Numbered from the stretch's first letter, positions 21,765-36,955 are shown. The stretch: 64,000 nucleotides of DNA from Acidobacteriota bacterium (GCA_011523845.1 WTFV01000011.1:68871-132870), one strand, 5' to 3'. The notes: generated from the sequence alone by a model not told the origin. Numbers and translations: made by a program.

Positions 21765-22010
21765 CTACGCTCGTGCCGCCGGCCCGACCCGGAAGTCACG
21801 TGCGTGCGTGATGTCCGCATCGGTCACTGCACGTACCTGTGACGACGACACGGTAACCAACGCCGCCGTGTAACCATCCAGGGTCAGAAACTCCACCTCG
21901 AGAGCTTCACCGTCCCGATGGACGTGAACAATCGTTCCAACATCTCCGGCCTTCAGGCCCGGCTCGGCAAGGTCGTCCGTGAGCACGATGCGATCATGTT
22001 CTTCCAGCAT
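21765..22010 (-). CDS. DUF4926-like small protein (paralogue 1)
   Basis: MLEEHDRIVLTDDLAEPGLKAGDVGTIVHVHRDGEALEVEFLTLDG. About 85 % DNA identity to 23022-23249. Confidence 0.65.
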   Translation of the reverse strand: MLEEHDRIVLTDDLAEPGLKAGDVGTIVHVHRDGEALEVEFLTLDGYTAALVTVSSSQVRAVTDADITHARDFRVGPAARA

Positions 22011-22121
22011 TCCGACTCCCCAGCCGTCGGACTCCGCCAGCGCTACAAGGACTCTACGAGCGCCGGTTCAATGCGTCGATCCGGCCTGCTTGCGGTTGGT
22101 CATCTCTATGCGCCGTCCTCG

Positions 22122-22412
22122 TCAGACATCTATCGCCTCGCGCTCGACGTAGGGGCGTATCTCCGCCCGCAACTCCCGGGTCGTCGTCATGTCCACGTGT
22201 CGGCCCAGCAGGTCCTCCAGATAAGCCTGCGCTCCGAAATAGCGCCTCCAGTCGTGCGGCGCGTCGAACCGGACCAGGATGTCCACGTCGCTGTCGTCAG
22301 AGCCTCGATCGCGGGCAAAGGACCCGTAGAGGGCCAACTCGATCACCCCGAAGCGCCGGGCGAGCGTCGCCTTGTGCCGTCGAAGCAGACGGAGCACGTC
22401 GTTCCTCGTCAT
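22122..22412 (-). CDS. MNT-type nucleotidyltransferase (HEPN/MNT antitoxin-like), no HEPN partner
   Basis: 96 aa. LYGSFARDRGSDDSDVDILV is the GS-x10-DxD minimal nucleotidyltransferase motif. Downstream there is only an 11-codon ORF. Confidence 0.8.
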   Translation of the reverse strand: MTRNDVLRLLRRHKATLARRFGVIELALYGSFARDRGSDDSDVDILVRFDAPHDWRRYFGAQAYLEDLLGRHVDMTTTRELRAEIRPYVEREAIDV

Positions 22413-22520
22413 GGCGTCCTCGGTCGGATCGAGCCCGACGGTCGGGCGTGTCCGGAGATCGATGTCGCGGCCGAGTCACGAGAGGGATCGAAATCGGGCT
22501 CGTGTCCATCTGTGCGCGCC

Positions 22521-22736
22521 TCATGACTCATTCGCACCGCGTCCCTCGCCCGGTGCACTCTCCGTCGCGGCATTCATTGCGGCGATGCTGCTCTGCGGAG
22601 GCTGCACGCAGGTGCGGCCCGATGCGGCTTCCATGCTCCGGATGTGCCGGACAATGGCGTCGATGTCATAGTTGAAACGCGCTGCGAGCCTGTCGCGCAC
22701 GGCGCGCACCTCGGCCACAATCGGATCAGGTTTCAT
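22521..22736 (-). CDS. Small antitoxin-like protein
   Basis: MKPDPIVAEVRAVRDRLAARFNYDIDAIVRHIRSME. Its start overlaps the end of the upstream PIN-like ORF. Confidence 0.45.
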   Translation of the reverse strand: MKPDPIVAEVRAVRDRLAARFNYDIDAIVRHIRSMEAASGRTCVQPPQSSIAAMNAATESAPGEGRGANES

Positions 22737-23031
22737 CGTCGTCCTCCGCTACGACAAGCTGCTCCGGCGTGCACAGGAGCGGCGGGTCGATACCGGCGTC
22801 TCGACACACGGCCTCGATCCGTGGCCGCGCCGCGGCGGCATCGCGATCTCCCACCGCCGCTTCTTCCCGAACCAGTTCCGAAATCACCAACTCGAACCGC
22901 TCCTTCGTACCCGCCCACCAGTCTCGCGTGCTCTGCTGCCGCCCAGCAATCACTATGTCACGCGCGGGCCGGGCCGTCAGATAGCTGACGACGCTGGTTT
23001 CGACGTAGACACGCGGCTTCATCATGACCAA
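22726..23031 (-). CDS. PIN-like toxin homologue, apparently lacking the central catalytic portion
   Basis: The N-terminus VYVETSVVSYLTARP...FELVISELVREEA and C-terminus IEAVCRDAGIDPPLLCTPEQL resemble the two ends of 150-170-aa PIN-type toxins I recall. This protein is only 101 aa. Confidence 0.4.
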   Translation of the reverse strand: MVMMKPRVYVETSVVSYLTARPARDIVIAGRQQSTRDWWAGTKERFELVISELVREEAAVGDRDAAAARPRIEAVCRDAGIDPPLLCTPEQLVVAEDDDET

Positions 23032-23249
23032 CCGTCACGTGCGTGCGTGATGTCCGCAGCGGTCACTGGACGCACCTGGGACGACGACACCGTGACCAGC
23101 GCCGCCGTGTGGCCATCCAGGGACAGGAACTCCACCTCGAAGGCTTCACCGTCCCGATGGACGTGAACAATCGTTCCGACATCTCCGGCCTTCGGGCCCG
23201 GATCGGCAGCGTCGTCCGTGAGCACCACGCGATCATGTTCTTCCAGCAT
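23022..23249 (-). CDS. DUF4926-like small protein (paralogue 2)
   Basis: MLEEHDRVVLTDDAADPGPKAGDVGTIVHVHRDGEAFEVEFLSLDG. Direct repeat of 21765-22010. Confidence 0.65.
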   Translation of the reverse strand: MLEEHDRVVLTDDAADPGPKAGDVGTIVHVHRDGEAFEVEFLSLDGHTAALVTVSSSQVRPVTAADITHARDGWS

Positions 23250-23442: not shown

Positions 23443-23581
23443 GTCGAAGGGATTGACCACGGGGACGCCGAGACCTTCGATGTCCGGGCGTGTTGCGGGG
23501 GACGACGGTCATGTCGTGCACACGGGCGGTCGCGGCCAGGCGTTCCGTTGCGGTCCTGGAAACACCGGTCAGCTTGTTCAA
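23443..23581 (-). pseudogene. vapC (PIN) C-terminal remnant, frameshifted
   Basis: ...ERLAATARVHDMTVV in one frame continues as RPDIEGLGVPVVNPFDA in another. This resembles a VapC C-terminus (IAATA..H.ltlvTrN..Df....v.v.NPF). Confidence 0.4.
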
Positions 23582-23606
23582 CCGCGGCTTGGATGCGTGT
23601 GCACGG

Positions 23607-25719
23607 TCACTGCCCCGCCCGCAGGTCGTCGAGGAACTCCGAGCCGGGGTCCACGCCCGTCACCAGCAGCCGGTCGCGGGCGCGGGTGCAGGCGACGTAG
23701 AGCAAGTGCCGCTCGGTGCCGTAGACCTCCTCCAGATCGGCGTCATCGCCCACGCGTTCGATCCGGGTCTGCAGAGGAATGACCTCGTCGTCGCACGCTG
23801 CCACCGCGACCGCCCGGAACTCCAGCCCCTTGGCGAGGTGCATGGTGCCGACCGCGACCGACCCGGACACGCCGCCGGACCCGTCGTCGAGCTGCACGGC
23901 GCGCATGCCCGCGGCCCGTACAGCCGAAAGCGCCCGGTCGATCTGCTCCAGTGACCTGACGAACACGCCGATTGCCTGCGGCGCGCAGCCCTCGCGCTGT
24001 CGCGCGCGAAGCCAGTCCGCGATGGCCTTGGTCTCGTCCTCCGGCGAATCGAAGGTCCTGACCTCGGGTGCGGGTCCGTTGAACACCGAGACCGTTGCAC
24101 CTCGCTGCTCCGGGTTGCCGTCGACGTCGGCCAGCTCGGGCGGCAAGAGCCGGTCCGCCTGTCGCCGGATCTGATGCGACGTGCGGTAGTTGATGCGCAG
24201 CGTATGGGATCGCCCCCGCACGTCGACGCCGAGGGCCCGCCAGGAGAATGGTGTCTGGAAGATCCGCTGTCCAAGATCCCCGGCGAAGAACAGGCCGTTC
24301 GGCCGGCTCCCGCCCAGGCCCGCCAGAAACCGCAGTTCCGCGACGCCGATGTCCTGGGCTTCGTCGAGGACGCAGAAATCGAACGGTGGATGCGCAGCCC
24401 CCGCCATCGTCGCCGCCACCCGTCCGAACATGCCGGGCTCCGTCAACCTCCCCCGCTCGGCGAGCGCCGATTGGACCCGCGAGAAGATCGACCACAGCAA
24501 CTCCCGCTGCTTCTCGGCCAACCGGGTCTTGCGGCCGAGCCGCTGCACGTCGCGGTCGTCCTCCCAGCTCGCAAGTTGCCAGGCGTCGACCACCGTGCTC
24601 CATTCCGTCCGAAGGAAGTGCGCACCGAAACGATGACCTTCGACATCGGCAGCCGCCTGCCGGAGCAGCTCCCGGATGTCTTCGTCCGTCGCCAGCTTGA
24701 GGCGGCCGACGTTCGCCGTGTAGAGGCGACGCCCAATGGCGCTCATCGAAATGCACCTCGAGACGCTCGGCGATCTGCGGCTCGTTCCCGATGAGGCGTC
24801 TGAGACGCGTTCGCAGCGCGGTGGCCAGCGCATCGGAGAAGGTGGCCAGCAGCACGCGGCTCTCTGGATGTGCGCGCGCCAGATGCACCGCCCTGTGAAG
24901 CGCCACGATGGTCTTGCCGGTGCCGGCCGAGCCCGAGACACGCGCCGGACCGGTGTACTCGCGTTCGACGAGCTGCCGTTGGGCCGGGTGCAGGAAGACC
25001 GTCCACTTCTCCCAGGGGTAGTCCAGCGCCCGCTCCAGCGCCTCCACGTCCGCCATCACCCGGAAGCGGCGCTGCGCGTCCGGATGCGCGAACGGATCGG
25101 CGCCCGCCACGGCAGGCGCCGGGCGGTCAGGGGCACCGCCGGTCGCAAGCTGCAGCAGTGCCTCGGCGGCCTCGCCCGGCAGGTGGTCGGCGAGGTCGAG
25201 CAGCGTGTCCTCCGTCGCGGCCCGCACGTCGTTCAGCCACTCGACGGGCACGCCGTAGCCCAGCAGATCGTCGTCCGACGCGTGGGCGAAGAACGCCGTC
25301 CGCGACGCCGCCGGTCTGCCAGCCGCGGCCCCTTCGGTGGACGCGGGGACGTCCACCTCCACATACCGCGGCACCCGAATCTCGCGAACCGTCTCGCGGA
25401 TCTCGACGAGTTGCGCAGCGCCCGTCGTCGGATGCCGTTCCAGTCGCCGTCGTTCGGCCCACTGGTACGCCGCGTCGTGATGATCGACGTAGCAGAGCAG
25501 GAAGCTGGAAGCGGTCCGGTGGACGATCAGCCGGATGTCGCGACTGACCCGAACGGACCAGAAGTCCTTGTCCTTCGCCCGGTCGACCTGGTGCAGCTTC
25601 AGGCCCGGATGCGCCGGGTTCATCTGCAGGTCGAACGCCGCGGTCTTGACCGCCTTCTGCTCGTCGCCGGTCAGCTTCGCGAGGCTATCGGTGAAGGTGT
25701 CGGCGATTCGGAACTGCAT
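23607..25719 (-). pseudogene. UvrD/Rep-family helicase with N-terminal RelE/ParE-like domain, split by a +1 frameshift near 24749-24751
   Basis: The upstream frame starts at 25719 (MQFRIADTF...KLHQVDRAKDKDFWSVRVSRDIRLIVHR...VDHHDAAYQWA) and carries Walker A GSAGTGKT. The downstream frame (track ORF 23607..24941) carries VLDEAQD, INYRTS, TMHLAKGLEF and YVACTRARD. 2113 nt = 3n+1. Confidence 0.75.
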
Positions 25720-28223
25720 CAGGTCTCTATCTCGACCGGCACACCGATCTGGTTCGCGACTTCCGTCCGGAGATCCACGTCGACGTCCGGCGCCTTGATG
25801 CTGACGACGAGCGCGTATCGCGCGGTTTGGTCGTATCTCTCGAGGGCTTGGCGGGTCTTCCACCAACCTACCGCAGGGTAGACGGCGAGGCTCCCCCGGC
25901 TCGCGAGATCCGCCGCGCTGCCGCGCCAGATGTCCGCATGCAGTGAACCTCTGTGGCGAGTCTGCTTCCCAATCAACCACTCGGGATCGCTGCCCTGCGC
26001 GCGATGCGTTCCTTCTTCCTCGTCTCGCGCCGCTACGTTGATCCTGCTGCGAAACTCGTCGACCGACTCGAGGGGTCGCTTCACGTCGAAGCGGAGACCG
26101 TGGGACTCGTATCGGTACCGGGAACGGACCCCGCGCCGCGACGGGTTCGGCTCGATGAAGTAGGACAGCGTGACCCGCATCTCGACCTGCGTATCGCCCA
26201 GGCCCTCCAACTCATCGCGTGGCCAGGGCAGGTTGTAGAGATGCATGTCCCGAAGCGTGGGCGACTTCGATCCCTCGCGCTGGAATGGATGCAGACGCTC
26301 CTCGATCACCATCGTCAACGAGTTGTCGACACTCCAGAGCGCGCGATCGAGATCCGGCACGCCGAACCCGCAACGCTGGACCAGACGTCGGTAGTCCGTC
26401 TTCGTGGCCGCGCGGGTTGTGGGCAACGAGGCACGTCGCATGGCCTCGGTCCACTCCGCCGAATGCACGATGAGGGCACGGACAGTCTCCGGCCACAACG
26501 TCGGATAGACGACCATGATTCGAGCCGCGAGCCGCGCAGCCAGCGCCATCGCAGCACTCGTTGCGGTAGCAGTAGTGAAGATCCGTTCGTTGGGTCGATG
26601 ATGCGCTGTCAAGAGGCTGAGGCTGTCGGCCGTAACCGCGGAGAGCCCGTCCTTCGCCGCATTGCCGCCCTCAAGCACGATGTCCGGCTTCAGGCGCCAG
26701 TACTTCTCCCATGACAGTGAGGTCGTGCTGAACGGACTCAGACCGCCCCGCGGAGCAACGGGCGTGTAGTCGTCGGTGTCAGACTCCGTAATTCGCACCA
26801 GCTCCGTACAAGCACCCACCGCCAGCGCGTTCCATGCCTGCGCTGGATCGTGCACGCCATCGGTGTCGTTGGAATACGGGTAGTTGAACCACGCGTTGGG
26901 ATCCTGGATGTTCCCGGCCGACAGTACCAGCAGACGCGGGTGCTCACCAGCTCCGTCGACATCGGCCGCAAGTGCGTCCACGGCTGCCGACCACGCGGAC
27001 GGGCGGCCCCGGTCGCGGTCGTCGGGAGTCGTGACGGCCATGCCGAACACTCGAGGCCTCCTCGGAGCCGCGATTTCCGGACGGGCCACCGCCTCTCCCG
27101 TCACGTAACCATGGTGCCGCGAGTCTCCGTCGCCGCCGGGCCCGGGCAGCAGCTTCACCGATTCCAAACGGTGATCGAGCGCCACCGGGTCGGTGCCTTC
27201 AACAAGCGGCGTCAGATCGCCGGCGAGCGCCACGCCGGCCATCTGGGTCCCGTGGCCGTGCGCATCGTCGGGGCCCCAGCCGGGCTCGACGGTGTGCTGA
27301 TCGGCCGGCTCGAGTGCCGGGCTCAAGAACGGATGTCCCCGGTTGACGCCCGTGTCAAGGAGACAGACGCGCGGAACCTCATCCGTGTCGGCTGGGAATT
27401 GAGTCCGTGCAAGCAACTCGTCAAGCCATTCCTGCTGCTCTTCCGGCGGTAGGGAGCCAAAGAAATCAGCGGTCTCCTTGGCTCGCCGAAGCTCCGCGAT
27501 GCTGTTGAGCGTCAGCATCGAGTGCTCCATCTGTTCCAGTGAAGCCGACACCAACACCACCGTCCGCTCAGGAAACACCAACTCGCCAGGCGCAAGCCGC
27601 ATCCCCTGCGCTTCGGCTCGCTTCCGAAAGGACGCGATGATTGTCCGTCGATCCCTCCGGACCGGGAGCCAAACTTCCCACCAGAGTGCGCCTTCATCCC
27701 CCGTCGGGAACTCCGTCGCCGTGTCGGTCCAGAGGGCACGCAGGCTCGCCGCGCGAATCTCGCGAATCGCATCGACGAGTTTCCTGTTGTCGCGTACGCG
27801 TCCGATGCGATCCCGCCTCTCCTCCAGGTAGTCCCGGATGAGCCGCTCGAAGTGATCGAGCCTTCCGTCGGGCACGAAGACTGTCGCGAGCGTTCGATCA
27901 CGCTCCTGCCGGACGTTCAGCAGCTCCATTCCGGACCGCTCGCGCGCCAGGCTCTCGAAGGCCAACTCGATGTCAGGAAAGCTCTCGAACTCGATCCGCA
28001 ACCCCAACTCGTCCAGGCCGGCAGCCTGCTGAGCGTCTCGGGCGGCGTCAGCCTGCGGCCGCAACGCTTCGAACTGTCGCTGCAGTGCTCGGGCGTGGCG
28101 GGCGCGGTGGCGCTCAGGTACGACAGCGGAAGCTCCGAACTGCTGTGGCGACCTATACGGCTGCGTTTCTGCGAAGCCTTCGATGATGAAGTGTCGACTT
28201 CTTCGGTCCGTCCCGTTCGCCAT
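25719..28223 (-). CDS. ietS: S8 subtilase-family serine peptidase (IetS-like)
   Basis: 834 aa. Catalytic-type motifs CLLDTGV (Asp), HGHGTQMAG (His), LSAGN (Asn), ATATSAAMA (Ser). There is a long N-terminal non-protease region. The stop overlaps the helicase ATG (ATGA at 25717-25721). Confidence 0.8.
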   Translation of the reverse strand: MANGTDRRSRHFIIEGFAETQPYRSPQQFGASAVVPERHRARHARALQRQFEALRPQADAARDAQQAAGLDELGLRIEFESFPDIELAFESLARERSGMELLNVRQERDRTLATVFVPDGRLDHFERLIRDYLEERRDRIGRVRDNRKLVDAIREIRAASLRALWTDTATEFPTGDEGALWWEVWLPVRRDRRTIIASFRKRAEAQGMRLAPGELVFPERTVVLVSASLEQMEHSMLTLNSIAELRRAKETADFFGSLPPEEQQEWLDELLARTQFPADTDEVPRVCLLDTGVNRGHPFLSPALEPADQHTVEPGWGPDDAHGHGTQMAGVALAGDLTPLVEGTDPVALDHRLESVKLLPGPGGDGDSRHHGYVTGEAVARPEIAAPRRPRVFGMAVTTPDDRDRGRPSAWSAAVDALAADVDGAGEHPRLLVLSAGNIQDPNAWFNYPYSNDTDGVHDPAQAWNALAVGACTELVRITESDTDDYTPVAPRGGLSPFSTTSLSWEKYWRLKPDIVLEGGNAAKDGLSAVTADSLSLLTAHHRPNERIFTTATATSAAMALAARLAARIMVVYPTLWPETVRALIVHSAEWTEAMRRASLPTTRAATKTDYRRLVQRCGFGVPDLDRALWSVDNSLTMVIEERLHPFQREGSKSPTLRDMHLYNLPWPRDELEGLGDTQVEMRVTLSYFIEPNPSRRGVRSRYRYESHGLRFDVKRPLESVDEFRSRINVAARDEEEGTHRAQGSDPEWLIGKQTRHRGSLHADIWRGSAADLASRGSLAVYPAVGWWKTRQALERYDQTARYALVVSIKAPDVDVDLRTEVANQIGVPVEIET

Positions 28224-28237
28224 GCTGCGCCTTGCCG

Positions 28238-29227
28238 CTACACTCCTCTCGCAGCCAGCTTATCGGCGATGGTCTGGCGCTCCTTCAGCATCGTCCGGAT
28301 ATCCGCTTCGCGAACCAGAGACCGATCGTGAATCAACGCATCCTTCAGCACCTCGTCGGCGGCGCGAACGACCTCCGCGTAGCTCAGGCCCGCCGCGAGG
28401 TTGGCGAGGCTGCGCCAGCGGATCCGCTTCACGGCCTGTGAGGCGAGCCGTGCCCTCAGAACCTGCACAATCTGCGTCCTGTCGGGCAACTCGTAGTGCA
28501 GGATGTCGTCGAAGCGACGGAAGAGCGCGGGATCGAGAATGCCTGGATGGTTGGTCGCGGCAATGACGAGGCTGTGGGAGCGATCCTGCTCGATCATCTG
28601 GAGAAAACTGTTGAGGACACGTCGGATCTCGCCGACGTCGTTCGCGAGCCCACGCTGCGAGCCAATCGCGTCGAACTCGTCGAAGAAGTACACCCCCCGC
28701 GTGCGTCCCGTCGCCTCGAAGATCTGCCGCAGCTTGGCCGCCGTCTCTCCCATGTACTTGGTGATCAACCCATCGAGGCGGACCTGAAGAAGCGGAAGCC
28801 CCAGCTCTCCAGCCAGTACCGACGCGGTCAGCGTCTTGCCGGTTCCGGGTGGCCCCGTCAACAACAACTTGCGCCGCGGCGCGAGACCTCGCTCCAGGAT
28901 GCGCCCGGCGTGGCGCTGCTCCCGAATCACGCGCCGAATCTGGTCCCGGAGCTCCTCTCCCAGCACCATCTGTCCCAGTCGTGCGCCCGGATAGGACGCT
29001 TCCAGCAGATTCGCCAGCTCGCCGCGCGGCCGCCCGATCGGAACCGGCGCTCCGGCCCCCGTTTGGCTCTTGGCGCGATCGATCAGCGTGCGCAGCTCCT
29101 CGGCTAGTCTGCCATGCCCGAGCCTCGCCTCGTGGGCGGCCACCTGCATGGCGACGGAGAAGAAGCGGTCGTCATCGCCCTCCGCGTGCGACTTCAGCAG
29201 CGCCTTGAGCTGTTCACCGCTGGCCAT
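28238..29227 (-). CDS. ietA: AAA+ ATPase (IetA-like)
   Basis: Walker A GPPGTGKT, Walker B VYFFDEFD, sensor VIAATN, PALFRRFD. The ATG at 29227 has GGGAGA 7 nt upstream, so the track start at 29242 is less likely. 14-nt gap to the peptidase gene. Confidence 0.8.
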   Translation of the reverse strand: MASGEQLKALLKSHAEGDDDRFFSVAMQVAAHEARLGHGRLAEELRTLIDRAKSQTGAGAPVPIGRPRGELANLLEASYPGARLGQMVLGEELRDQIRRVIREQRHAGRILERGLAPRRKLLLTGPPGTGKTLTASVLAGELGLPLLQVRLDGLITKYMGETAAKLRQIFEATGRTRGVYFFDEFDAIGSQRGLANDVGEIRRVLNSFLQMIEQDRSHSLVIAATNHPGILDPALFRRFDDILHYELPDRTQIVQVLRARLASQAVKRIRWRSLANLAAGLSYAEVVRAADEVLKDALIHDRSLVREADIRTMLKERQTIADKLAARGV

Positions 29228-29258
29228 CAAGCATTCTCCCACGTGGGTTCGCGGCGAT

Positions 29259-32078
29259 TCACACCCGGAACACCTTCATCACCTCGTCGCCGAGGTGGTT
29301 GATGACCTTGACGGCGATGCGGCCCGACGCGGGGCGGTCGAACGGGCGCGAGAGGTCGCTGTGGAGCGACGCCCACGCGTCGGCGTCGATCTCGGCCTTC
29401 AGCGTCGTCTTCAGCGCCTTGTAGGGGTCGTTCGCGCCGAGGAAGTAGGCCTGCCGGACGAAGAAGCTCTCCTCGTTGTAGTCGGTGTCGACGAACCAGC
29501 AGGCGATGCCGTCGGCGCCGTCGCTGCGGACCTCGCCGGTGGTCGGGTGGAAGACGTCCACGCCGTTGATCCGCACCTGGATCCGCGTGCCGCCGTCGCC
29601 TTCGCCGCCAACCGGAAGGATGTCGATGTCCGGCTCGCCGAAGATGACGAACAGGTTGCCCTTGCCGGTGTTCTTCAGCTCGTCCGCCATGTGGAGGTCG
29701 GCGTTCATGCGCGCCTTCAGGACCGGGATGCGGCCGAGGCGGTTGAACTCCGACGCGTGCGCTTCGTAGTTGAACGCGCAGGCGATCAGGACGTCGAAGC
29801 CGGCGTCGCCCGCCTCGCGCGCGGCCGCCACCAGGTCCGGACGGGCCACGGTGCCGAACTCGGGGCCGACGAAGATCCCGGCGCGCTTGTCCGGGCCGGC
29901 ATCCCCATCGCCTTCGCGGTAGCGTCCCTCCGCGCAGATGTACTCGCCCGGCCAGGGCGTAACGGCGGCGAAGGCGATGCGATCCTCCTTGTGCACCTGC
30001 TGCACGCCGGCAGTCGCGAGCTGCTCCAGGATCATGGTCGCGAAGTCCTGTTGCGGCCCGTAGTCGGCCCTCGGCTCGGCGGCGCGGTCGATGAGCTCGT
30101 CGTCCTCGTCGACCGCCAGCACGCGATGCGGCGACAGGCTCTCCACCGTGAACGGTCCCGCCACCCGGACCTTCCGGTTGTCCTCGTAGGGCTTGTCGTA
30201 GAGGTACTCGTAGTCGGCCCGGGCCGCGATGGAAGCGTCGATCTCCTGTTGCCGGGCGATGCGCGCCTCCCACCACAGTCGATGCGTCTCGGCCGCCTCC
30301 GCCGGCCAGTCCTCGGACGCCTCGCGGGGAACCTGCCACTCCTCCCAGTCGGCATCGAGCCGGGCGTTCAGGTCGTCGCGCAACGGCTCCAGCGTCTCCT
30401 GCCAGCGCTCCCAGATGCCGTCGATCTCCGCGTTGTTGGCGATCGACTTGAGCGTGATGTGCGGGACACACTCGTAGACGAACCCCTGCCGGACGTCGCC
30501 GCGCGTCGGAGCGTCCGATGGCGCCTTTCGCGTGATCTCGGCCTCCTTGCGCTGCCCTTCCGGACTGTCAGCGAGAAGGTAGTACGGGTAGCGCGCGCCC
30601 ATGATGCGGGCACGGGCGAGGGCCAGCGCTACTCGGGAGGTGTCGATGGTGATCCAGCGGCGACCCCATTGCTCGGCGACGTATGCTGTGGTCCCGGACC
30701 CACAGGTCGGATCAAGTACCAGATCCCCGGGGTCGGTTGTCATGAGGATGCAGCGTTCAGCAACCGAACGGTTAGTCTGAACAACATACACCTTGGGGTC
30801 ATCAAATCCGGACGTAGTTGTGTCAGTCCACAAATTGGAGTAAGGAAAAATGCGGAAATCATCCAAGAACCTAACATAACGAAGTGTGTTTCCAATGAAG
30901 ATCATGCGCTTTGCGCAGGCGAGCCTCTGCAGTCCAGCCGCATCAGTCTTGAAAGTACCCTTATTGACGCCGAATGACTTTCCTTCGTAAGTGAACTCCC
31001 GAACATCCCCGCCCTGCGCCGGCCTCTGACTGGTAATGTTGTCGTGCGAGAAAATCCTGAGAGCCTTTGGATCTACGCCAGACCCTATCCATTCTGATGT
31101 GGTGCGCCTTTCACCACTTGCGTTCTCTCCGAACGAATACTGACTCGCACCAGCGGTACCAGGTTCTTTGAGCTGAAAAATCGGCCGGTACTTAGGAGCT
31201 TCAGACTTACTAAACCACAATAGAAGATCAAAAACACCTGATAGAGAGTCTGATGAGGTCGACGATGTCTTCTGGAACGCAATCTCGGCAATGAACCGCC
31301 CATCCCCGAACACCTCATCCATCAACGCCCGCACGCGGTGCACATTCTCATCCCCGATCTGCACGAAGATCGAACCGCTCTCCGCCAGCAGCTCGCGTGC
31401 CACAACCAACCGGTCCCGCAGATACGTCAGATACGAGTGAATCCCGTCGCGCCAGGTATCCCGGAACGCCCGGACCTGTTCCGGCTCCCGGCTGATGTGC
31501 TCCGCCTTGCCGTCCTTCACGTCGCGACTGGTCGTCGACCACTGGAAGTTCGAGTTGAACTTGATGCCGTAGGGCGGGTCCAGGTAGATACACTGCACCT
31601 TGCCGCGCAACCCTTCGCGCTCGGCGAGGGACGCCATCACCTGCAGGCTGTCGCCGAGGATCATCCGGTTCGACCAGTTGGCGTCGTGCTGGTAGAACTC
31701 GGTCCGGGCGTTATCGCTCGGCAGCCCGTTGAAGTCGGCGAACAGATCCGGCTGGGCCTCCGCGCCGTCACCGCCCTGCCCGGCCCGTCCGTTCCTGCGC
31801 TGCCGGCGGAGGTCGTCGACGAGCACCTTCGGGTGGACCTTCTCCTGGATGAACAGAGGCGGCGCCTGCACGACGAGGTCGGACCAGTCCTGCGCGTCCT
31901 TGCCGCGCCAGACGAGCTGTGGATCAAGGTCGCGGTTGCGGCGCTCATAGGCGACCTGGACGGGGCTCTGCTCGGCGCGTTCCATCACGGACCGGAATTC
32001 GGCCGTGGGGATGTTCTTGCGCGACGCCTCCTGGTGCCTGAACGTCTCGACGGCCTTCCTGGATCGGTTCTTCGGCAT
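29259..32078 (-). CDS. mod: Type III-like DNA methyltransferase (Mod), beta-class N6A/N4C
   Basis: Start MPKNRSRK at 32078. Motif IV IYLDPPYG lies upstream of motif I DPTCGSGTT (beta-class order), with a low-GC presumed target-recognition region between them. Long C-terminal domain. Confidence 0.85.
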   Translation of the reverse strand: MPKNRSRKAVETFRHQEASRKNIPTAEFRSVMERAEQSPVQVAYERRNRDLDPQLVWRGKDAQDWSDLVVQAPPLFIQEKVHPKVLVDDLRRQRRNGRAGQGGDGAEAQPDLFADFNGLPSDNARTEFYQHDANWSNRMILGDSLQVMASLAEREGLRGKVQCIYLDPPYGIKFNSNFQWSTTSRDVKDGKAEHISREPEQVRAFRDTWRDGIHSYLTYLRDRLVVARELLAESGSIFVQIGDENVHRVRALMDEVFGDGRFIAEIAFQKTSSTSSDSLSGVFDLLLWFSKSEAPKYRPIFQLKEPGTAGASQYSFGENASGERRTTSEWIGSGVDPKALRIFSHDNITSQRPAQGGDVREFTYEGKSFGVNKGTFKTDAAGLQRLACAKRMIFIGNTLRYVRFLDDFRIFPYSNLWTDTTTSGFDDPKVYVVQTNRSVAERCILMTTDPGDLVLDPTCGSGTTAYVAEQWGRRWITIDTSRVALALARARIMGARYPYYLLADSPEGQRKEAEITRKAPSDAPTRGDVRQGFVYECVPHITLKSIANNAEIDGIWERWQETLEPLRDDLNARLDADWEEWQVPREASEDWPAEAAETHRLWWEARIARQQEIDASIAARADYEYLYDKPYEDNRKVRVAGPFTVESLSPHRVLAVDEDDELIDRAAEPRADYGPQQDFATMILEQLATAGVQQVHKEDRIAFAAVTPWPGEYICAEGRYREGDGDAGPDKRAGIFVGPEFGTVARPDLVAAAREAGDAGFDVLIACAFNYEAHASEFNRLGRIPVLKARMNADLHMADELKNTGKGNLFVIFGEPDIDILPVGGEGDGGTRIQVRINGVDVFHPTTGEVRSDGADGIACWFVDTDYNEESFFVRQAYFLGANDPYKALKTTLKAEIDADAWASLHSDLSRPFDRPASGRIAVKVINHLGDEVMKVFRV

Positions 32079-32098
32079 GGGACACACCCGCGGTCGGC

Positions 32099-32314
32099 TC
32101 ACCCGGCCTTGTACGACGCCACTGGCAAGGCTCGGGTCTCGAGCGTAGCCAGATCGAGCTTCCTCGAAGCGTGGTCTATATCGAAACCGACCGGATTGCC
32201 GTCGGCGTCGAGGTCGACGTTGAGTCCGGTCACAACCTCGCGGGCTTCCACGCCTGGGCCGGCTCTCAGTTCCACGTACAGGCTGTCGGTGTCCGGGTAG
32301 TAGTGGAGCTTCAT
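32099..32314 (-). CDS. DUF2283-like small protein
   Basis: MKLHYYPDTDSLYVELRAGPG...VGFDIDHAS. An alternative upstream ATG at 32389 overlaps the res stop (ATGA) and would add 25 aa. Confidence 0.6.
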   Translation of the reverse strand: MKLHYYPDTDSLYVELRAGPGVEAREVVTGLNVDLDADGNPVGFDIDHASRKLDLATLETRALPVASYKAG

Positions 32315-32385
32315 GACGAGTCCCTTCCAAAACCCGCAGTCGAAGAAGGCATCGTGGATTGTCTCACCGTCGGCCAGCGTCACGG

Positions 32386-35300
32386 TCATCGTGTCACCCG
32401 CTCGACCAACGCCTGGAACTGCGCCCTCAGCGCGCCCTCGAAGTCCTCCTCCATCGTGTAGACGTCGGTCAGCTCGGCGAAGGCCCAACGGCCGTAGGCG
32501 CCGAGGTTGTTGACGCCGGGGACCCAGTAGGTGTCCATCGTCGTCTTCTTGTCCTTGGCGTCCTCGCCCCGGTAGCCCTTCACCTCGACCACGAGGCGGA
32601 GCAGGTCCTCGTCGCCGCGGCCGTCGTCGACGAGCACGACGAAATCGGGGAGGTAGCGGCGCGTCCGGGAACCGTAGCGGTAGGGCACCTCGAGGCCGAG
32701 GGCGTGGTTCTTGACGTAGGCGCGCACCCGCGGATGCGATTCGACCACGAGGCAGAACTGGGCCTCCCAGTCGCTGTCGCACACGACCCAGTTGACGTGG
32801 CAGCGGCCGGGGTCGGTCTCCCAGCGGAGCTTCTTCGAGGTCGTGAAGCGCACGTGGAGCGTCGAGCCGACGGGGTTGTAGGGGTCCAGCATGGCCTTGA
32901 TCGGACGCTCGCCCAGCAGATTGGAGACGATCCCGGCCGTGATACGTTCGCACGCCATGTCGGCCAGCTCCTGGTACATGAGCTGGGCCGGATACGTCCC
33001 GCCCTTGCAGTCGAGATGACCGTCGAGCCACTGGCGCGTGATCCGCTTGAGCTGGCCGAACAGGTGCAGCTTCGGCTCCTCGCCGGGATCCCGCCACCTG
33101 GTCTCCAGCAGCCGCTTCGTCAGATGAAAGAGCAGGGTCGACTTCCGCAGGTCGCGGGTGTGAATCAGGTTCAGATCGACCCCTTCACCGATGATGCCCT
33201 CGACGCGCGTGATGGACGGCCCGACCAGCGCGGGGGTGAGCTCCAGCGTCGAGTCGTCGTTGAAGCGGGCGGTCAGGCGCTCTTCGGGGAGCTCGACGCG
33301 GTAGCCCGCCACCCGCGGGAAACGGATCTCGCAGGCGTCGCGTTCCGGCGTGATCGCCCGCACCAGCACCGTCTCCCGCGGCGGCGGCGGCTTGACCGGC
33401 ACCGGCTTGGCGGTGAAGTCGAACGGGATGCCGAGCACGTCGGCGTACTCGACGTCGAAGAGGCCGTCCTCGTTCGGGTCGTAGGACTGGCGGCGCAGCG
33501 CGCGCCCGACGACCTGCTCGCAGAGGAGCTGCGTCCCGAAGGCGCGGACGCCCAGGATGTGGGTGACGGTGCGGGCGTCCCAGCCCTCGGTCAGCATCGA
33601 GACGGAGACGACGCAGCGGACCGATCCGCCGAGGGTGTCCGGCTTGCCGACCGTGTTCATCACCTCGCGGAGCAGATCCTGGTCCGACAGGTGCTCGGCC
33701 TGCTTGCGGTCACCCGTCCGGGCGACGATCTCCCGCCGGAAGCGCTCGATCTCGTCGCCGGCCGCGGCGCGGAAGTTCTTGTCGAGCGCCTCGCCCGAGT
33801 CGAGCTGCTCGCTGTCGATGAGCAGCGTGCGGGGACGGGGGTGCGGGTTGCCGTGCTCGTCGAAGTTGCGAAACAGCTTCAGGCGTCCGTTGACCAGCGT
33901 CGTGGCGCCGTACTCGTTCTCGCGGAAGAAGCCGGAGACGAAGTCGTAGACGAGCTTCGAGGTCGAGGTGTTGTTGCAGACGATGATGAAGCAGGGCGGC
34001 ACGGCGATGCCGGCCTTCTCCCACAGCTCGAACGTCTGCTCGTAGTGGCCGTAGAGCGCCTGGAGCGCGGTCTGCAACTCCACCGGCAGGCTGAGCGGGT
34101 CGAGTCCGCCCGCCTTGCCGCGGCCCCGCTTCGGCATCTTCGGGCGGATGTGCTCCCACAGGTTCCGGAACTTCGGCATCTCGCCGCCGGGGATGTTGTC
34201 GGCCACCGGCACGCGCGGCAGCTTCACGATGCCGCACTCGATGGCGTCCATCAGCGAGAAGTCGCTCGCCGTCCAGGGGAACAGCGTCCCCTCCGCGTAG
34301 CCGGAGCCGCGCAGGAAGAAGGGCGTGGCCGAGAGATCGATCACGCGCTGCAGGCCAAGCTTCCGCTGCACCGCCTCGAGCCCGGAGATCCAGACCCGCG
34401 CCGCCTCGCGGTTCCGCTCGGCCTCCTTGCGGTCGTCGCCCTTGAGCGGGCCTTCTTCGTCCTCCCCGGCCGGCTTCTCGCGGTAGCAGTGGTGCGCCTC
34501 GTCGTTCAGGGCCAGGATGCGCTTCATGCCCATCAGGCCCGGCATGACGCGCTGCAGCATCTGCCCTTCGGTCTCCTTCGTCCGCAGCTCGGGCCCGGGC
34601 CCCTGCAGCAGGGCGCGACCGCCCTTCGACAGTTCCAGCGTCTCGCGCCGCAGGAACGCGTGGTAGTTGGTGACGACGATCTTCGCCCGCTCCAGGTCGC
34701 GGAGCATGTCGTTCGGCACCAGCTCGCGGCTCGCGTAGTAGCTGTCCGGATCGTTGGGCTGGAGCACCCGCAACCGGTCGCGGATCGTCACGCCGGGGGT
34801 CACCACCAGGAAGCCGCGCGTGAACCGCCGGCTGCCCGGCCGGCGCACCGCGTTGATCGTCTGCCAGGCGATGATCATCGCCATGACGGTGGTCTTGCCG
34901 GCGCCGGTGGCGAGCTTCAGCGCCAGCCGCGCGAGGCCGGGATTGGCCCCTTCGCTGGCGGCGTCGATCTGATCGAGAAACCGGCGGCCCTCCTTGCCGA
35001 GGCTCGGCGCCACCTCGGTCAGCCAGATCGCGGTCTCCACCGCCTCGACCTGGCAGAAGAACGGCCGGATGTCGCCGAACCGATGGCTGCGCCAGTGGGT
35101 CAGGAGCCGTGCGGTCTCCGGCGTCACGCTCCAGGCGTTCGGATCCGGCAGCTCGCGCCAGCGATCCACATGGTGGCGGACGCCGCCGATGAACGCCGTC
35201 AGGTCGTACTGCTGCGCCTCGGTCCCGAGCGCCTGCGCGGCCGCGTCGAAGAGGATCTCCTCCTGCTGGATGCCCTTCTGCTTCTTCGGCTTCGGGATCG

Positions 35301-35442
35301 GCGTGATGAAGGCGACCTTGCGGCGCTCGGAGAGGATCCGGTTCGTCGGCTGGCCGCTCGGGTCGAGCTCCCAGTGGCGGGACGGGTACTCGTACGGCGA
35401 GTTCAGGATCGGTTGCTCGAAGAATGCAGCCGTCGTCGCCAT
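32386..35442 (-). CDS. res: Type III restriction enzyme Res subunit (SF2 helicase-nuclease)
   Basis: 1018 aa. MATTAAFFEQPILNSPYEYP. Motif I KLATGAGKT, motif II ALNDEAHHC, SVSMLTEGWD, QVVGRALRR. The C-terminal region has endonuclease-like EVKG. Confidence 0.85.
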   Translation of the reverse strand: MATTAAFFEQPILNSPYEYPSRHWELDPSGQPTNRILSERRKVAFITPIPKPKKQKGIQQEEILFDAAAQALGTEAQQYDLTAFIGGVRHHVDRWRELPDPNAWSVTPETARLLTHWRSHRFGDIRPFFCQVEAVETAIWLTEVAPSLGKEGRRFLDQIDAASEGANPGLARLALKLATGAGKTTVMAMIIAWQTINAVRRPGSRRFTRGFLVVTPGVTIRDRLRVLQPNDPDSYYASRELVPNDMLRDLERAKIVVTNYHAFLRRETLELSKGGRALLQGPGPELRTKETEGQMLQRVMPGLMGMKRILALNDEAHHCYREKPAGEDEEGPLKGDDRKEAERNREAARVWISGLEAVQRKLGLQRVIDLSATPFFLRGSGYAEGTLFPWTASDFSLMDAIECGIVKLPRVPVADNIPGGEMPKFRNLWEHIRPKMPKRGRGKAGGLDPLSLPVELQTALQALYGHYEQTFELWEKAGIAVPPCFIIVCNNTSTSKLVYDFVSGFFRENEYGATTLVNGRLKLFRNFDEHGNPHPRPRTLLIDSEQLDSGEALDKNFRAAAGDEIERFRREIVARTGDRKQAEHLSDQDLLREVMNTVGKPDTLGGSVRCVVSVSMLTEGWDARTVTHILGVRAFGTQLLCEQVVGRALRRQSYDPNEDGLFDVEYADVLGIPFDFTAKPVPVKPPPPRETVLVRAITPERDACEIRFPRVAGYRVELPEERLTARFNDDSTLELTPALVGPSITRVEGIIGEGVDLNLIHTRDLRKSTLLFHLTKRLLETRWRDPGEEPKLHLFGQLKRITRQWLDGHLDCKGGTYPAQLMYQELADMACERITAGIVSNLLGERPIKAMLDPYNPVGSTLHVRFTTSKKLRWETDPGRCHVNWVVCDSDWEAQFCLVVESHPRVRAYVKNHALGLEVPYRYGSRTRRYLPDFVVLVDDGRGDEDLLRLVVEVKGYRGEDAKDKKTTMDTYWVPGVNNLGAYGRWAFAELTDVYTMEEDFEGALRAQFQALVERVTR

Positions 35443-35570: not shown

Positions 35571-35706
35571 GGGATCGGCATCATCGCCAATGCGTTCGAT
35601 CCGGATCTGCAGTGGAATGACCTCATCGTAGCAGGCGGCCACCGCGACCGCCGGAACTCCAGCCCCTTCGCGAGGTGCATGGTGCCGACCGCGACCGATC
35701 CGGACC
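35571..35706 (-). pseudogene. Fragment of a paralogous UvrD-like helicase (C-terminal region)
   Basis: About 85 % identical to 23733-23868 in direct orientation. Encodes ...VAVGTMHLAKGLEF... and ...CYDEVIPLQIRIERIGDDAD. Confidence 0.75.
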
Positions 35707-35868
35707 CGCTCGAAGCGCTGAGGGACCGGCGCCGGGGGCAGTGGAGCATCCGATCAACGACCAGTGGCGGATCTGCGTATGGCCCGAGGGGGCTCGGGCT
35801 CATTGAGCCAAGCGTCAAGGTATATAATGCCCGATATCCGTCCGCTGGCCTTTGGGACAGCGGGGCGC

Positions 35869-36033: not shown

Positions 36034-36542
36034 GGCCCAAGATGGAGAACAAGGAGTACGTTCTTCGAGGATTCATCAGGCTCCGTCCAAGTGGGCGCTT
36101 TGTCGGAGTCTGTCTGAGGCCCAACCTCGTTGTCGAAGCCGACTCGAGAGAGGAAGCGCTCGAAAAGTTGAAGGACCTTATCGGTGCGTATCGTGCAGAT
36201 GCGGTCAGGGATGGCGAGCTCGATCACTTCATGAAGCAACGTGCGCCGCTTGCGTTCTATCTGGAATGGTTCAGCCTGCGGATCGCGCAATTCGGCCACG
36301 AGAACTGGCGTAACATTCGGGACGTCGTTCGCAGGCTCCTGCACGAGCAGCCGAACAGTTCGGGACCCGTCCCGGACGCGGTCGGGCGGCCGTTCCGGAC
36401 GTTTACCGAAAGTCGAAACGCATCTCGCAGCATGCTTGATGCCCTTCTGTTTTTTCGGCTTCGGGATCGGCGTGATGAACGCGACTGGCCCGCGGCGAGC
36501 TCCGGCCCGGCCGGGGTGGAGATCGGCGACCACCACCGATGA
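36030..36542 (+). CDS. Hypothetical protein with HicB/UPF0150-like N-terminus; 3' end runs into gene fragments
   Basis: EYVLRGFIRLRPSGRFVGVCLRPNLVVEADSREEALEKLKDLIGAYRADAV is HicB-like by pattern only. After about 36435 the frame is antisense to a res fragment, so the native C-terminus is unknown. Confidence 0.35.
   Translation: MRPKMENKEYVLRGFIRLRPSGRFVGVCLRPNLVVEADSREEALEKLKDLIGAYRADAVRDGELDHFMKQRAPLAFYLEWFSLRIAQFGHENWRNIRDVVRRLLHEQPNSSGPVPDAVGRPFRTFTESRNASRSMLDALLFFRLRDRRDERDWPAASSGPAGVEIGDHHR
36436..36485 (-). pseudogene. Fragment of a paralogous res gene (codons about 45-60)
   Basis: Near-identical to 35268-35317. Encodes VAFITPIPKPKKQKGI. Confidence 0.7.
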
Positions 36543-36556
36543 GGAGGCACAGGCCC

Positions 36557-36705
36557 ATGCGCGAACCTATCCACCCCGGCGAGACGCTGCGCGAGGACCT
36601 CGACGCGCTCGGCATGAGCGCGGCGGAGCTTGCGCGGCGCATCGAGATACCTGTGAACCGCATTTCCCGGATTCTCAACGGCCAGCGAGCGGTTACCGGC
36701 GACCG
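36557..36705 (+). pseudogene. Truncated higA paralogue (first about 50 codons), preceded by a higB tail ...VEIGDHHR*
   Basis: MREPIHPGETLREDLDALGMSAAELARRIEIPVNRISRILNGQRAVTGD. Similarity then switches abruptly to mod. Confidence 0.75.
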
Positions 36706-36712
36706 AACTCCG

Positions 36713-36955
36713 GGCCAAAGAAGATCCCGGCGCACTTCCTCCGGGGCCGGCATCCCCCTCGCCTCCGCGGTAGCGTCCCTCCGCGCAGGTGTACTCCCCC
36801 GGCCACTGCGTGACGCCCACGAAGGCAATGCGACTCTCCTTGTGCGCCTGCTGCACGCCGGCGGTCGCCGGCTGCTCCACGACCACCGCCGCGAAGTACT
36901 GCTGCGGCCCGTAGTTGGCCCGCTCGCGGCGCGCTCGATGAGGACGCCTCGCCAT
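36713..36955 (-). pseudogene. Fragment of a paralogous mod gene
   Basis: About 80 % identical to 29862-30110 in direct orientation. Encodes ANYGPQQYFAAVVVEQPATAGVQQAHKESRIAFVGVTQWPGEYTCAEGRY, compared with ADYGPQQDFATMILEQLATAGVQQVHKEDRIAFAAVTPWPGEYICAEGRY in mod. Confidence 0.75.

Follow-up and report, generated by a model that had tools for sequence, protein, structure and literature searches.

The res-mod-IetAS-helicase locus

The window analysed here is a 64,000-nucleotide stretch from the genome of an Acidobacteriota bacterium (GCA_011523845.1, WTFV01000011.1:68871-132870), and our subject is a minus-strand gene within it that encodes a superfamily 1 (SF1) helicase with a RelE/ParE-type N-terminal domain and directly follows a pair of IetAS-like genes. 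We consider it very probable that this gene closes a res-mod-helicase module as its third core gene, and that the IetAS-like pair is embedded in this module as cargo. Read 5' to 3' on the minus strand, the locus consists of res (35442..32386), mod (32330..29259), an ietA-like gene (29242..28238), an ietS-like gene (28223..25719) and the helicase gene. The first core gene, res, encodes a BPTD_3080-family restriction endonuclease with a superfamily 2 (SF2) ATPase and a C-terminal endonuclease, and the second, mod, a type III-like methyltransferase (MTase) whose true start probably lies downstream of the TTG that opens its open reading frame (ORF). The cargo pair encodes a 334-aa AAA ATPase, matched by the PADLOC IetA model (4e-71) and by Pfam AAA, and an 834-aa S8 subtilase, matched by Pfam Peptidase_S8 (1.8e-55) and the PADLOC IetS model (8e-38). 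Judged by their scores against the NCBIfam equivalog models (IetA 198 bits vs a cutoff of 510; IetS, with the IteS model, 63 vs 900), the two proteins belong to a divergent IetAS-like subfamily outside the characterised one. No tRNA gene was found in the window.

The helicase gene overlaps the subtilase gene by one base, with the helicase ATG at 25719..25717 and the ietS TGA at 25721..25719 (TGATG). A first-pass annotation had placed the gene at 23607-25721; the gene does lie on the minus strand and ends at 23607, but the start belongs at 25719, and the overlap that had been described with the ietS-like stop is real but consists of one base within TGATG and not of a shared ATGA. The peptide quoted there for the N-terminus matches our translation. 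The gene is not a single ORF, a +1 frameshift having been overlooked there: codons 1-323 (25719..24751) and codons 324-703 (24749..23610) are in different frames, the switch falling between 24751 and 24749 in a tblastn comparison with the closest intact homologue as query (P0001, 703 aa, 94% identical). The site is a TTT run at 24749..24751 (AAA on the plus strand) with one extra base compared with intact homologues, so that the window reads GTGCATTTCGATGAGC where the related loci L002 and L003 read GTGCATTCGATGAGC (..VHSMS..). In a nucleotide comparison with L001-L004 and L028, none of these relatives had the extra base, and only substitutions were seen at the site. A programmed frameshift was ruled out because the homologues compared read through the site without interruption. 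As sequenced, the helicase is a pseudogene, unless the extra T in the three-base T run is a sequencing error.

Broken copies were also observed in further genomes: in L010 (8603-10001) an insertion of ~1.3 kb after codon ~35 contains a 399-aa ORF on the opposite strand, L013 (8406-10001) has an insertion after codon ~107, and the helicase of L011 (10001-11863) has an internal deletion.

A toxin-like fold in front of a UvrD-like core

The N-terminal domain, with a HigB/RelE-type predicted fold, is encoded by codons 1-106 (25402..25719), followed by codons 107-323 (24751..25401) for a low-confidence linker, a small helical domain and the start of SF1 domain 1A, and by codons 324-703 with the stop at 23609..23607 (23607..24749), which lie in the second frame and include the UvrD_C domain. 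The reconstructed protein matches UvrD-helicase (PF00580, 6e-15) and UvrD_C (PF13361, 1.5e-17), both over the Pfam cutoffs, and with the Walker A motif GSAGTGKT (24933..24910) and the Walker B motif DEAQD (24365..24351), each read from the translation, the UvrD/Rep-type SF1 core that had been proposed to follow the N-terminal domain is present. The helicase also matches the PADLOC GajB models (E down to 2e-19, partial) and NERD+UvrD models.

For the N-terminus, an AlphaFold2 (AF2) model of the first 125 residues, made from a 77-sequence alignment, reached a predicted local distance difference test score (pLDDT) of 84.6 and a predicted template modelling score (pTM) of 0.74, with the topology beta-alpha-alpha-beta-beta-beta-beta, then a helix and a beta hairpin. 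A Foldseek search of this model against the PDB gave 13 matches at E<=1e-3 (probability 1.0, target-normalised TM 0.60-0.75), all of which were RelE, YoeB, YafQ, RelJK, ParE-type or related small toxins. The modelled structure thus assigns the N-terminal ~106 residues to the RelE/ParE fold, as had been surmised from the sequence pattern, and a weak Pfam HigB match points in the same direction. When the PDB was searched by sequence, both with the domain itself and with a profile of it, only chance matches came back, and the evidence for the fold comes from the AF2 model. The full-length model of P0001, in which residues 110-139 form a low-confidence linker and residues 149-192 a small helical domain ahead of the motor, was poor (pLDDT 67.9, pTM 0.40) and was left out of the fold search for that reason.

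At the sequence level, HigB appears to be the subfamily nearest to the N-terminal domain. Several helicase homologues have precomputed PF05015 matches or bear the JGI name 'RelE', and hhalign places residues 49-81 on residues 59-92 of P. vulgaris HigB (sequence confirmed as PDB 4mct_B), pairing D79-H80-H81 with HigB D90-Y91-H92. In an alignment with helicase homologues of 32-44% identity and HigB, S55, R63, L75 and H81 are invariant, with R63 and H81 aligning with HigB R73 and H92. The residues that we take to be catalytic in HigB are H54, D90, Y91 and H92, and H54 was paired with helicase H43 by eye only.

A profile search of 1.84 billion representatives found 1762 family members at E<=1e-10; it returned mostly N-terminal fragments on short contigs and is informative on family size alone, and a homologue search with the N-terminal domain likewise returned close fragments only. 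No match was found in the complete E. coli genomes searched. A free-standing 139-aa ORF that consists of the HigB-like domain alone, 63% identical to helicase residues 1-123, was seen in L023 (5777-6193), where it sits in the cargo region upstream of a full helicase gene.

The helicase co-occurs with Res-Mod rather than with IetAS

The first-pass annotation had proposed the helicase as a possible third component of the IetAS-like pair and had named co-occurrence statistics as a check. In a helicase-anchored genome survey, we retrieved 80 loci (63-94% identity) and probed them with the Res, Mod, IetA and IetS of the window. The loci span Acidobacteriota, Alpha-, Beta-, Gamma- and Deltaproteobacteria, Planctomycetota, Verrucomicrobiota, Spirochaetota, Chloroflexota, Nitrospirota, Clostridiales and others. 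The 3' end of mod was found upstream of the helicase, on the same strand, in 66 of the 80, and res lies farther upstream wherever the contig extends. Of the 14 loci in which no mod was seen, 11 extend less than 3 kb upstream of the helicase, and the seven-gene cargo of one more, L044, also occurs in L057, where mod precedes it. The mod stop and the helicase ATG lie less than 150 nt apart in 11 of the 66 mod-positive loci and 0.5-9.9 kb apart in the other 55. IetA and IetS occupy this interval in 12 of the 80 loci, mostly close Vicinamibacterales relatives of the window, and ~85% of the helicase loci are without IetAS. De novo ORF clustering of the helicase loci found no conserved gene downstream of the helicase or upstream of res.

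The converse, IetS-anchored survey of metagenomes gave 80 loci (51-69% identity), of which 66 could be evaluated for the helicase and 56 on both sides. The helicase was absent from 52 of the 66 (79%). Among the 56, neither mod nor helicase was present in 45, both in 10, the helicase only in one and mod only in none, meaning that mod lies upstream in 10 of the 11 evaluable helicase-positive loci. In a neighbour-joining tree of 84 IetS proteins, copies with a linked helicase do not separate from free ones but are interleaved with them. Both surveys and the interleaved tree lead us to conclude that the helicase belongs with Res-Mod while IetAS comes and goes, and the proposed role as third IetAS component fails on co-occurrence. 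The correlation between Res, Mod and helicase identities (r 0.90-0.93) was set aside as evidence, being non-discriminating: IetS and helicase identities correlate as well (0.84), and phylogeny confounds all of these values.

Two features of free-standing IetAS loci were noted in passing. A conserved gene of ~105 aa lies directly upstream of ietA in 12 of them (L117, L123, L132, L134, L136, L138-L140, L147, L148, L153 and L155) and is absent from embedded pairs, and in L088, L092 and L093 the pair has shared large flanking genes (clusters c7, c26, c12 and c6) and may be embedded in another multi-gene system.

A cargo slot with exact boundaries and junction scars

The main cargo slot extends exactly from the mod stop codon to the helicase ATG. 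Depending on the genome, it is empty or contains co-directional genes that add up to 0.5-10 kb, many of them with matches to known or candidate defence proteins. The last codons of mod (GTGATGAAGGTGTTCCGGGTG-stop; ..VMKVFRV*) and the first codons of the helicase (ATGGAATTCCGCATCGCCGAC; ME/QFRIAD..) are recognisable in every phylum, and the similarity between loci stops precisely at the mod stop codon and at the helicase ATG. The TGATG overlap recurs whether the upstream gene is mod (L041, L046, L079), IetS or another cargo gene, so that the stop/start coupling is a property of the helicase start and not of IetS; the helicase ATG abuts the ietS stop in the window because the cargo there is an IetAS-like pair. 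The coupling had earlier been read as the sign of an IetS-helicase unit, a reading that does not hold when whichever gene precedes the helicase is coupled to it.

Cargo is present in 55 of the 66 mod-positive loci, and 126 of 132 cargo ORFs are co-directional. PADLOC matches in the cargo include HEC-01A/B, PD-Lambda-5 with a type II MTase, and PDC-S05, as well as AriA/PtuA/GajA-like ABC ATPases, a type IV restriction endonuclease and SIR2/pAgo-associated models. The interval between res and mod serves as another slot, used less often, whose contents include a distant IetAS pair, 39-46% identical, in L075 (2851-6414), a UPF0175 and DUF3368 gene pair in L166 (plasmid pAQ5, 12097-12841) and a 1272-aa ORF in L066 (1700-5520), a Klebsiella metagenome-assembled genome.

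Several loci retain scars at cargo junctions. For example, L028 (8571-9178) and L002 (8593-9186) have the order Mod-IetA-IetS-Hel[1-43]-Mod[991-1023]-cargo-Hel, in which ~43 first helicase codons and the 33 last mod codons lie between two stacked cargo cassettes. In L009 the order is IetS-Hel[1-71] ... IetS[716-834]-Hel, and helicase 5' stubs were found in L023, L038 and L067. We infer that these scars are footprints of cassette stacking by recombination in the conserved mod 3' and helicase 5' termini.

The Res-Mod host system

The gene content of the host corresponds to a type III restriction-modification (R-M) system, with adjacent genes for a Res (SF2 ATPase and endonuclease) and a Mod (N6/N4 MTase with a variable region). 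Res scores 1325 bits against NCBIfam NF046055, 'BPTD_3080 family restriction endonuclease' (cutoff 800), and contains the Pfam domains ResIII and RE_endonuc. Mod contains N6_N4_Mtase (Pfam) and scores 1383 bits on the PADLOC MTase_III model PDLC03632. The centre of Mod is hypervariable, the pairwise identity in columns ~270-420 being 0.20-0.37 vs 0.69 overall, and in this it is like the target-recognition domain of type III enzymes, as expected. Neither the res nor the helicase of the module has a dedicated model in PADLOC 2.0.

Annotated cargo-poor examples occur on plasmids. On P. amygdali pPae2250X (23540-30965), Res, a hypothetical gene, Mod and a 'UvrD-helicase domain-containing protein' follow each other, with the mod stop overlapping the helicase start, and the arrangement on Gemmobacter p6 is similar. 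In Res-anchored searches, the helicase was also present in those plasmid matches whose Res is at least 54% identical to that of the window and whose locus is undisrupted; on two Methylibium plasmids (Res 65.6%), a Tn3-family transposase follows res, and mod and helicase are not annotated.

Remnants and neighbouring genes in the window

Upstream of the intact res lie the remains of further module genes. A decayed helicase 3' fragment at 35573-35709 (minus strand), detected with blastn and, in two frames, with tblastn, is 90.6% identical over 138 nt (E 2e-49) to 23735-23872, which corresponds to helicase codons ~616-661; it has an indel of its own and lies 131 nt upstream of the res start. Still farther upstream, between 36433 and 36942 on the minus strand, are fragments of the res 5' end (36433-36485) and of mod (36703-36942), and the resulting minus-strand order of mod, res 5' and helicase 3' fragments differs from the canonical gene order. 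Comparable remnants stand beside intact modules in L001, L002, L011 and L049. The diverged second helicase fragment that had been reported at 35571-35706 is thus real, within a few bases. It had been described as lying beside a res-5'/higB junction, of which the res 5' fragment was recovered; no higB was found among the scanned ORFs upstream of res, which gave an HTH_3 match and a sub-threshold DUF1381 match only. The remnants are leftovers of an earlier or tandem module. It had been suggested that the helicase had travelled with this island type more than once; the remnants fit a repeatedly rebuilt locus rather than a helicase that moves with IetAS.

Directly 3' of the helicase, at 21768-23249 on the minus strand, are small ORFs for two DUF4926 proteins, an MNT-type nucleotidyltransferase (PF01909) and others, among which a c39-like ORF (22729-23031) appears disrupted. 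Homologues of these ORFs occupy the mod-helicase slot in L028 and L002 and the interval between res and mod in L021 and L046.

Interpretation of the module

The observed part of the res-mod-helicase explanation comprises the architecture, the fold, the co-occurrence numbers and the junction scars in related loci. On this explanation, cargo would be exchanged by recombination within the conserved sequences at the end of mod and at the start of the helicase gene, and the helicase would work with the restriction enzyme and not with the cargo. The SF1 motor might sense Res-made DNA ends or a disabled Res-Mod complex, and such sensing might unleash the HigB-like RNase domain as a second, abortive or guard layer. 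This sequence of events, which would resemble that of PrrC in EcoprrI or of the RelE effector of Cami1, is the model that we prefer, though we hold it to be less likely than not; the invariance of R63 and H81 counts in its favour, and as no antitoxin was seen, any control of the HigB-like domain would be in cis. Alternatively, the N-terminal domain may be a non-catalytic docking module. A broader and equally tentative proposal, to which we give well under even odds, is that Res-Mod-Hel constitutes an undescribed three-component defence, with the HigB-UvrD protein as a restriction-coupled abortive effector and the gene termini as homology arms by which cassettes are swapped and stacked across phyla.

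The rival that survives best, although we judge it improbable, treats the helicase as an autonomous single-gene defence or toxin (a HigB-type RNase with a UvrD sensor) that shares a hotspot with Res-Mod and is functionally independent of it. Single-protein helicase-effector defences exist, the PADLOC GajB and NERD+UvrD matches are compatible with one, the remoter Res-Mod pairs described below manage without the helicase, and distant homologues have different neighbours, giant DEAD/DEAH+MZB proteins in Thermus and on E. coli IncY plasmids. Against such independence, gene order and strand are fixed within the clade across many phyla, the helicase ATG overlaps or abuts the mod stop in cargo-free loci, none of the 80 helicase loci with sufficient upstream sequence is clearly without mod, and the distant homologues too always follow a gene for a large SF2 restriction-like helicase, which suggests partnership. 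Less credible still is the reading in which IetAS-like systems require the helicase as a third part, its translation coupled to that of ietS: for all that the 1-nt overlap in the window has equally tight counterparts in other IetS-helicase loci, that the helicase lies directly downstream in 14 of the 66 IetS-anchored loci and that a published IetAS variant, ietHAS, requires a helicase (PMC13069673), most close IetAS relatives lack the helicase and most helicase loci lack IetAS, mod nearly always stands before IetA where the helicase follows IetS, the coupling is just as tight with mod or unrelated cargo upstream, the IetS tree is interleaved, and ietH is an SNF2 (SF2) protein whereas the window helicase is SF1, UvrD-like and downstream of ietS.

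The placement of the helicase as the last core gene of the Res-Mod module has to be held against several findings that speak the other way. Remoter BPTD_3080 Res-Mod pairs occur without the helicase on Rhodococcus p4, Sphingobium pSF1 and Picosynechococcus pAQ5 (where the third gene encodes a P-loop and deaminase protein), which means that the restriction system can exist as two genes; the helicase is thus a clade-specific accessory of such a system. The helicase-anchored loci are all at least 63% identical, so that the near-universal linkage describes one clade, and helicase homologues of 30-38% identity adjoin other giant SF2 helicases of the DEAD/DEAH (+MZB) kind. IetAS is the most frequent single cargo and ~21% of this IetAS subfamily is embedded here, and because of these two facts some functional synergy is still conceivable. 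On the side of the toxin-like domain, the PF05015 (HigB-like_toxin) match has E=0.003 and 18.4 bits, below the cutoff of 27, the hhalign alignment to HigB is weak (E 0.005), and no adjacent antitoxin partner was seen, with no conserved small gene beside the helicase across loci: in cargo-free loci mod abuts the helicase, and nothing is conserved on its 3' side. Finally, the putative link of the helicase to restriction comes from gene linkage, and the proposed recombination mechanism was read from the scars.

Two of the distant homologues were inspected individually. On Thermus pTthSNM3-3b (L163:3462-10995), a homologue with the same N-terminal domain directly follows a gene for an 1838-aa DEAD/DEAH protein, and on the E. 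coli IncY plasmid p2 (L164:2636-11088) another, again with this domain, directly follows one for a 2113-aa DEAD/DEAH protein that bears an MrfA Zn-binding/DUF1998 domain. The sequences hint that the HigB-UvrD protein may partner several kinds of large SF2 restriction-like or defence enzymes.

The analysis corrects a case of guilt by adjacency, in that the tight stop/start coupling seen here reflects a cargo slot and not a functional trio, and it describes a restriction-type module that includes a HigB-fold/UvrD helicase and is widespread, occurring on plasmids and across many phyla. Since the slot holds known defences and validated candidates (HEC-01, PD-Lambda-5), its unannotated cargo amounts to a list of new defence candidates, and the exchange of defence cassettes can be studied readily here thanks to the exact boundaries and the scars. 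If the broader three-component proposal is correct, the module would be a cross-phylum carrier that swaps and stacks defence cassettes, IetAS being the commonest.

Comparison with known systems

Canonical type III R-M systems (EcoP15I/EcoPI) combine a Res with an SF2 ATPase and a C-terminal endonuclease with a Mod that is an N6/N4 MTase with a variable centre. The module described here shares the domain make-up of both subunits, the variable Mod centre and the adjacent co-directional genes, but differs in the order res-mod, the Mod length of ~930-1020 aa, a third gene conserved in the clade and genes inserted between the subunits. A second precedent is EcoprrI-PrrC, where PrrC is a latent anticodon nuclease of the ABC-ATPase/HEPN type in a type Ic R-M locus. 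In both cases a restriction enzyme is linked genetically to a toxin domain of the RNase type, and EcoprrI-PrrC suggests how such a domain could act as an RNA-cleaving backup that is set off when restriction is lost or inhibited; in contrast to PrrC, the candidate RNase here is a HigB/RelE-fold domain fused to an SF1 helicase. With the ribosome-dependent mRNases of the HigB/RelE family this domain has in common the predicted fold, the alignment of D-H-H to HigB D90-Y91-H92 and the invariant R63/H81, whereas it has no adjacent antitoxin, is N-terminal to a 600-aa helicase and has a sub-threshold Pfam score. In Cami1 (CARF-RelE; PDB 8phj, among the fold matches), a RelE domain already serves as a defence effector in fusion with a sensor.

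With regard to helicases in other defence systems, GajB of Gabija is likewise an SF1 UvrD-like accessory of a DNA-cutting defence enzyme, but the GajB matches here are partial, GajA is missing, and GajB is without the N-terminal HigB-like domain. In ietHAS, an SNF2 helicase, ietH, which is SF2 and DrmD-like, is added to IetAS and is required for defence (PMC13069673). The window resembles it in having an IetAS pair beside a helicase gene, although here the helicase is SF1, downstream of ietS and statistically tied to Res-Mod; identity with ietHAS was rejected because ietH is SNF2. Searches of the literature on BPTD_3080, on RelE/HigB with UvrD and on type III R-M with UvrD found nothing relevant, and no description of a HigB/RelE-UvrD fusion or of a three-gene Res-Mod-helicase module was met in the literature searched.

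The embedding of defence genes has been reported for Hma, BREX, DISARM and type I R-M systems (Payne et al., bioRxiv 10.1101/2024.01.29.577857). Hma consists of the helicase HmaA, the m5C methyltransferase HmaB and the ATPase HmaC; membership in Hma was rejected, as its methylase is m5C vs the N6/N4 Mod here, and there was no Hma model among the PADLOC matches. As in that study, variable, co-directional and often defence-matching genes are nested between restriction-like core genes, the proportion of co-directional cargo is comparable (~95% here vs 96.7%), and the HEC-01A/B families, which were defined there (10.1101/2024.01.29.577857), recur as cargo in our loci. The host, however, is different, being a type III-like Res-Mod with a HigB-UvrD helicase and not Hma, BREX, DISARM or type I, and here the boundaries of the embedding are exact (mod stop to helicase ATG) and junction scars are visible. 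Defence embedding itself is thus already published, and what is new here is an embedding host and an accessory protein.

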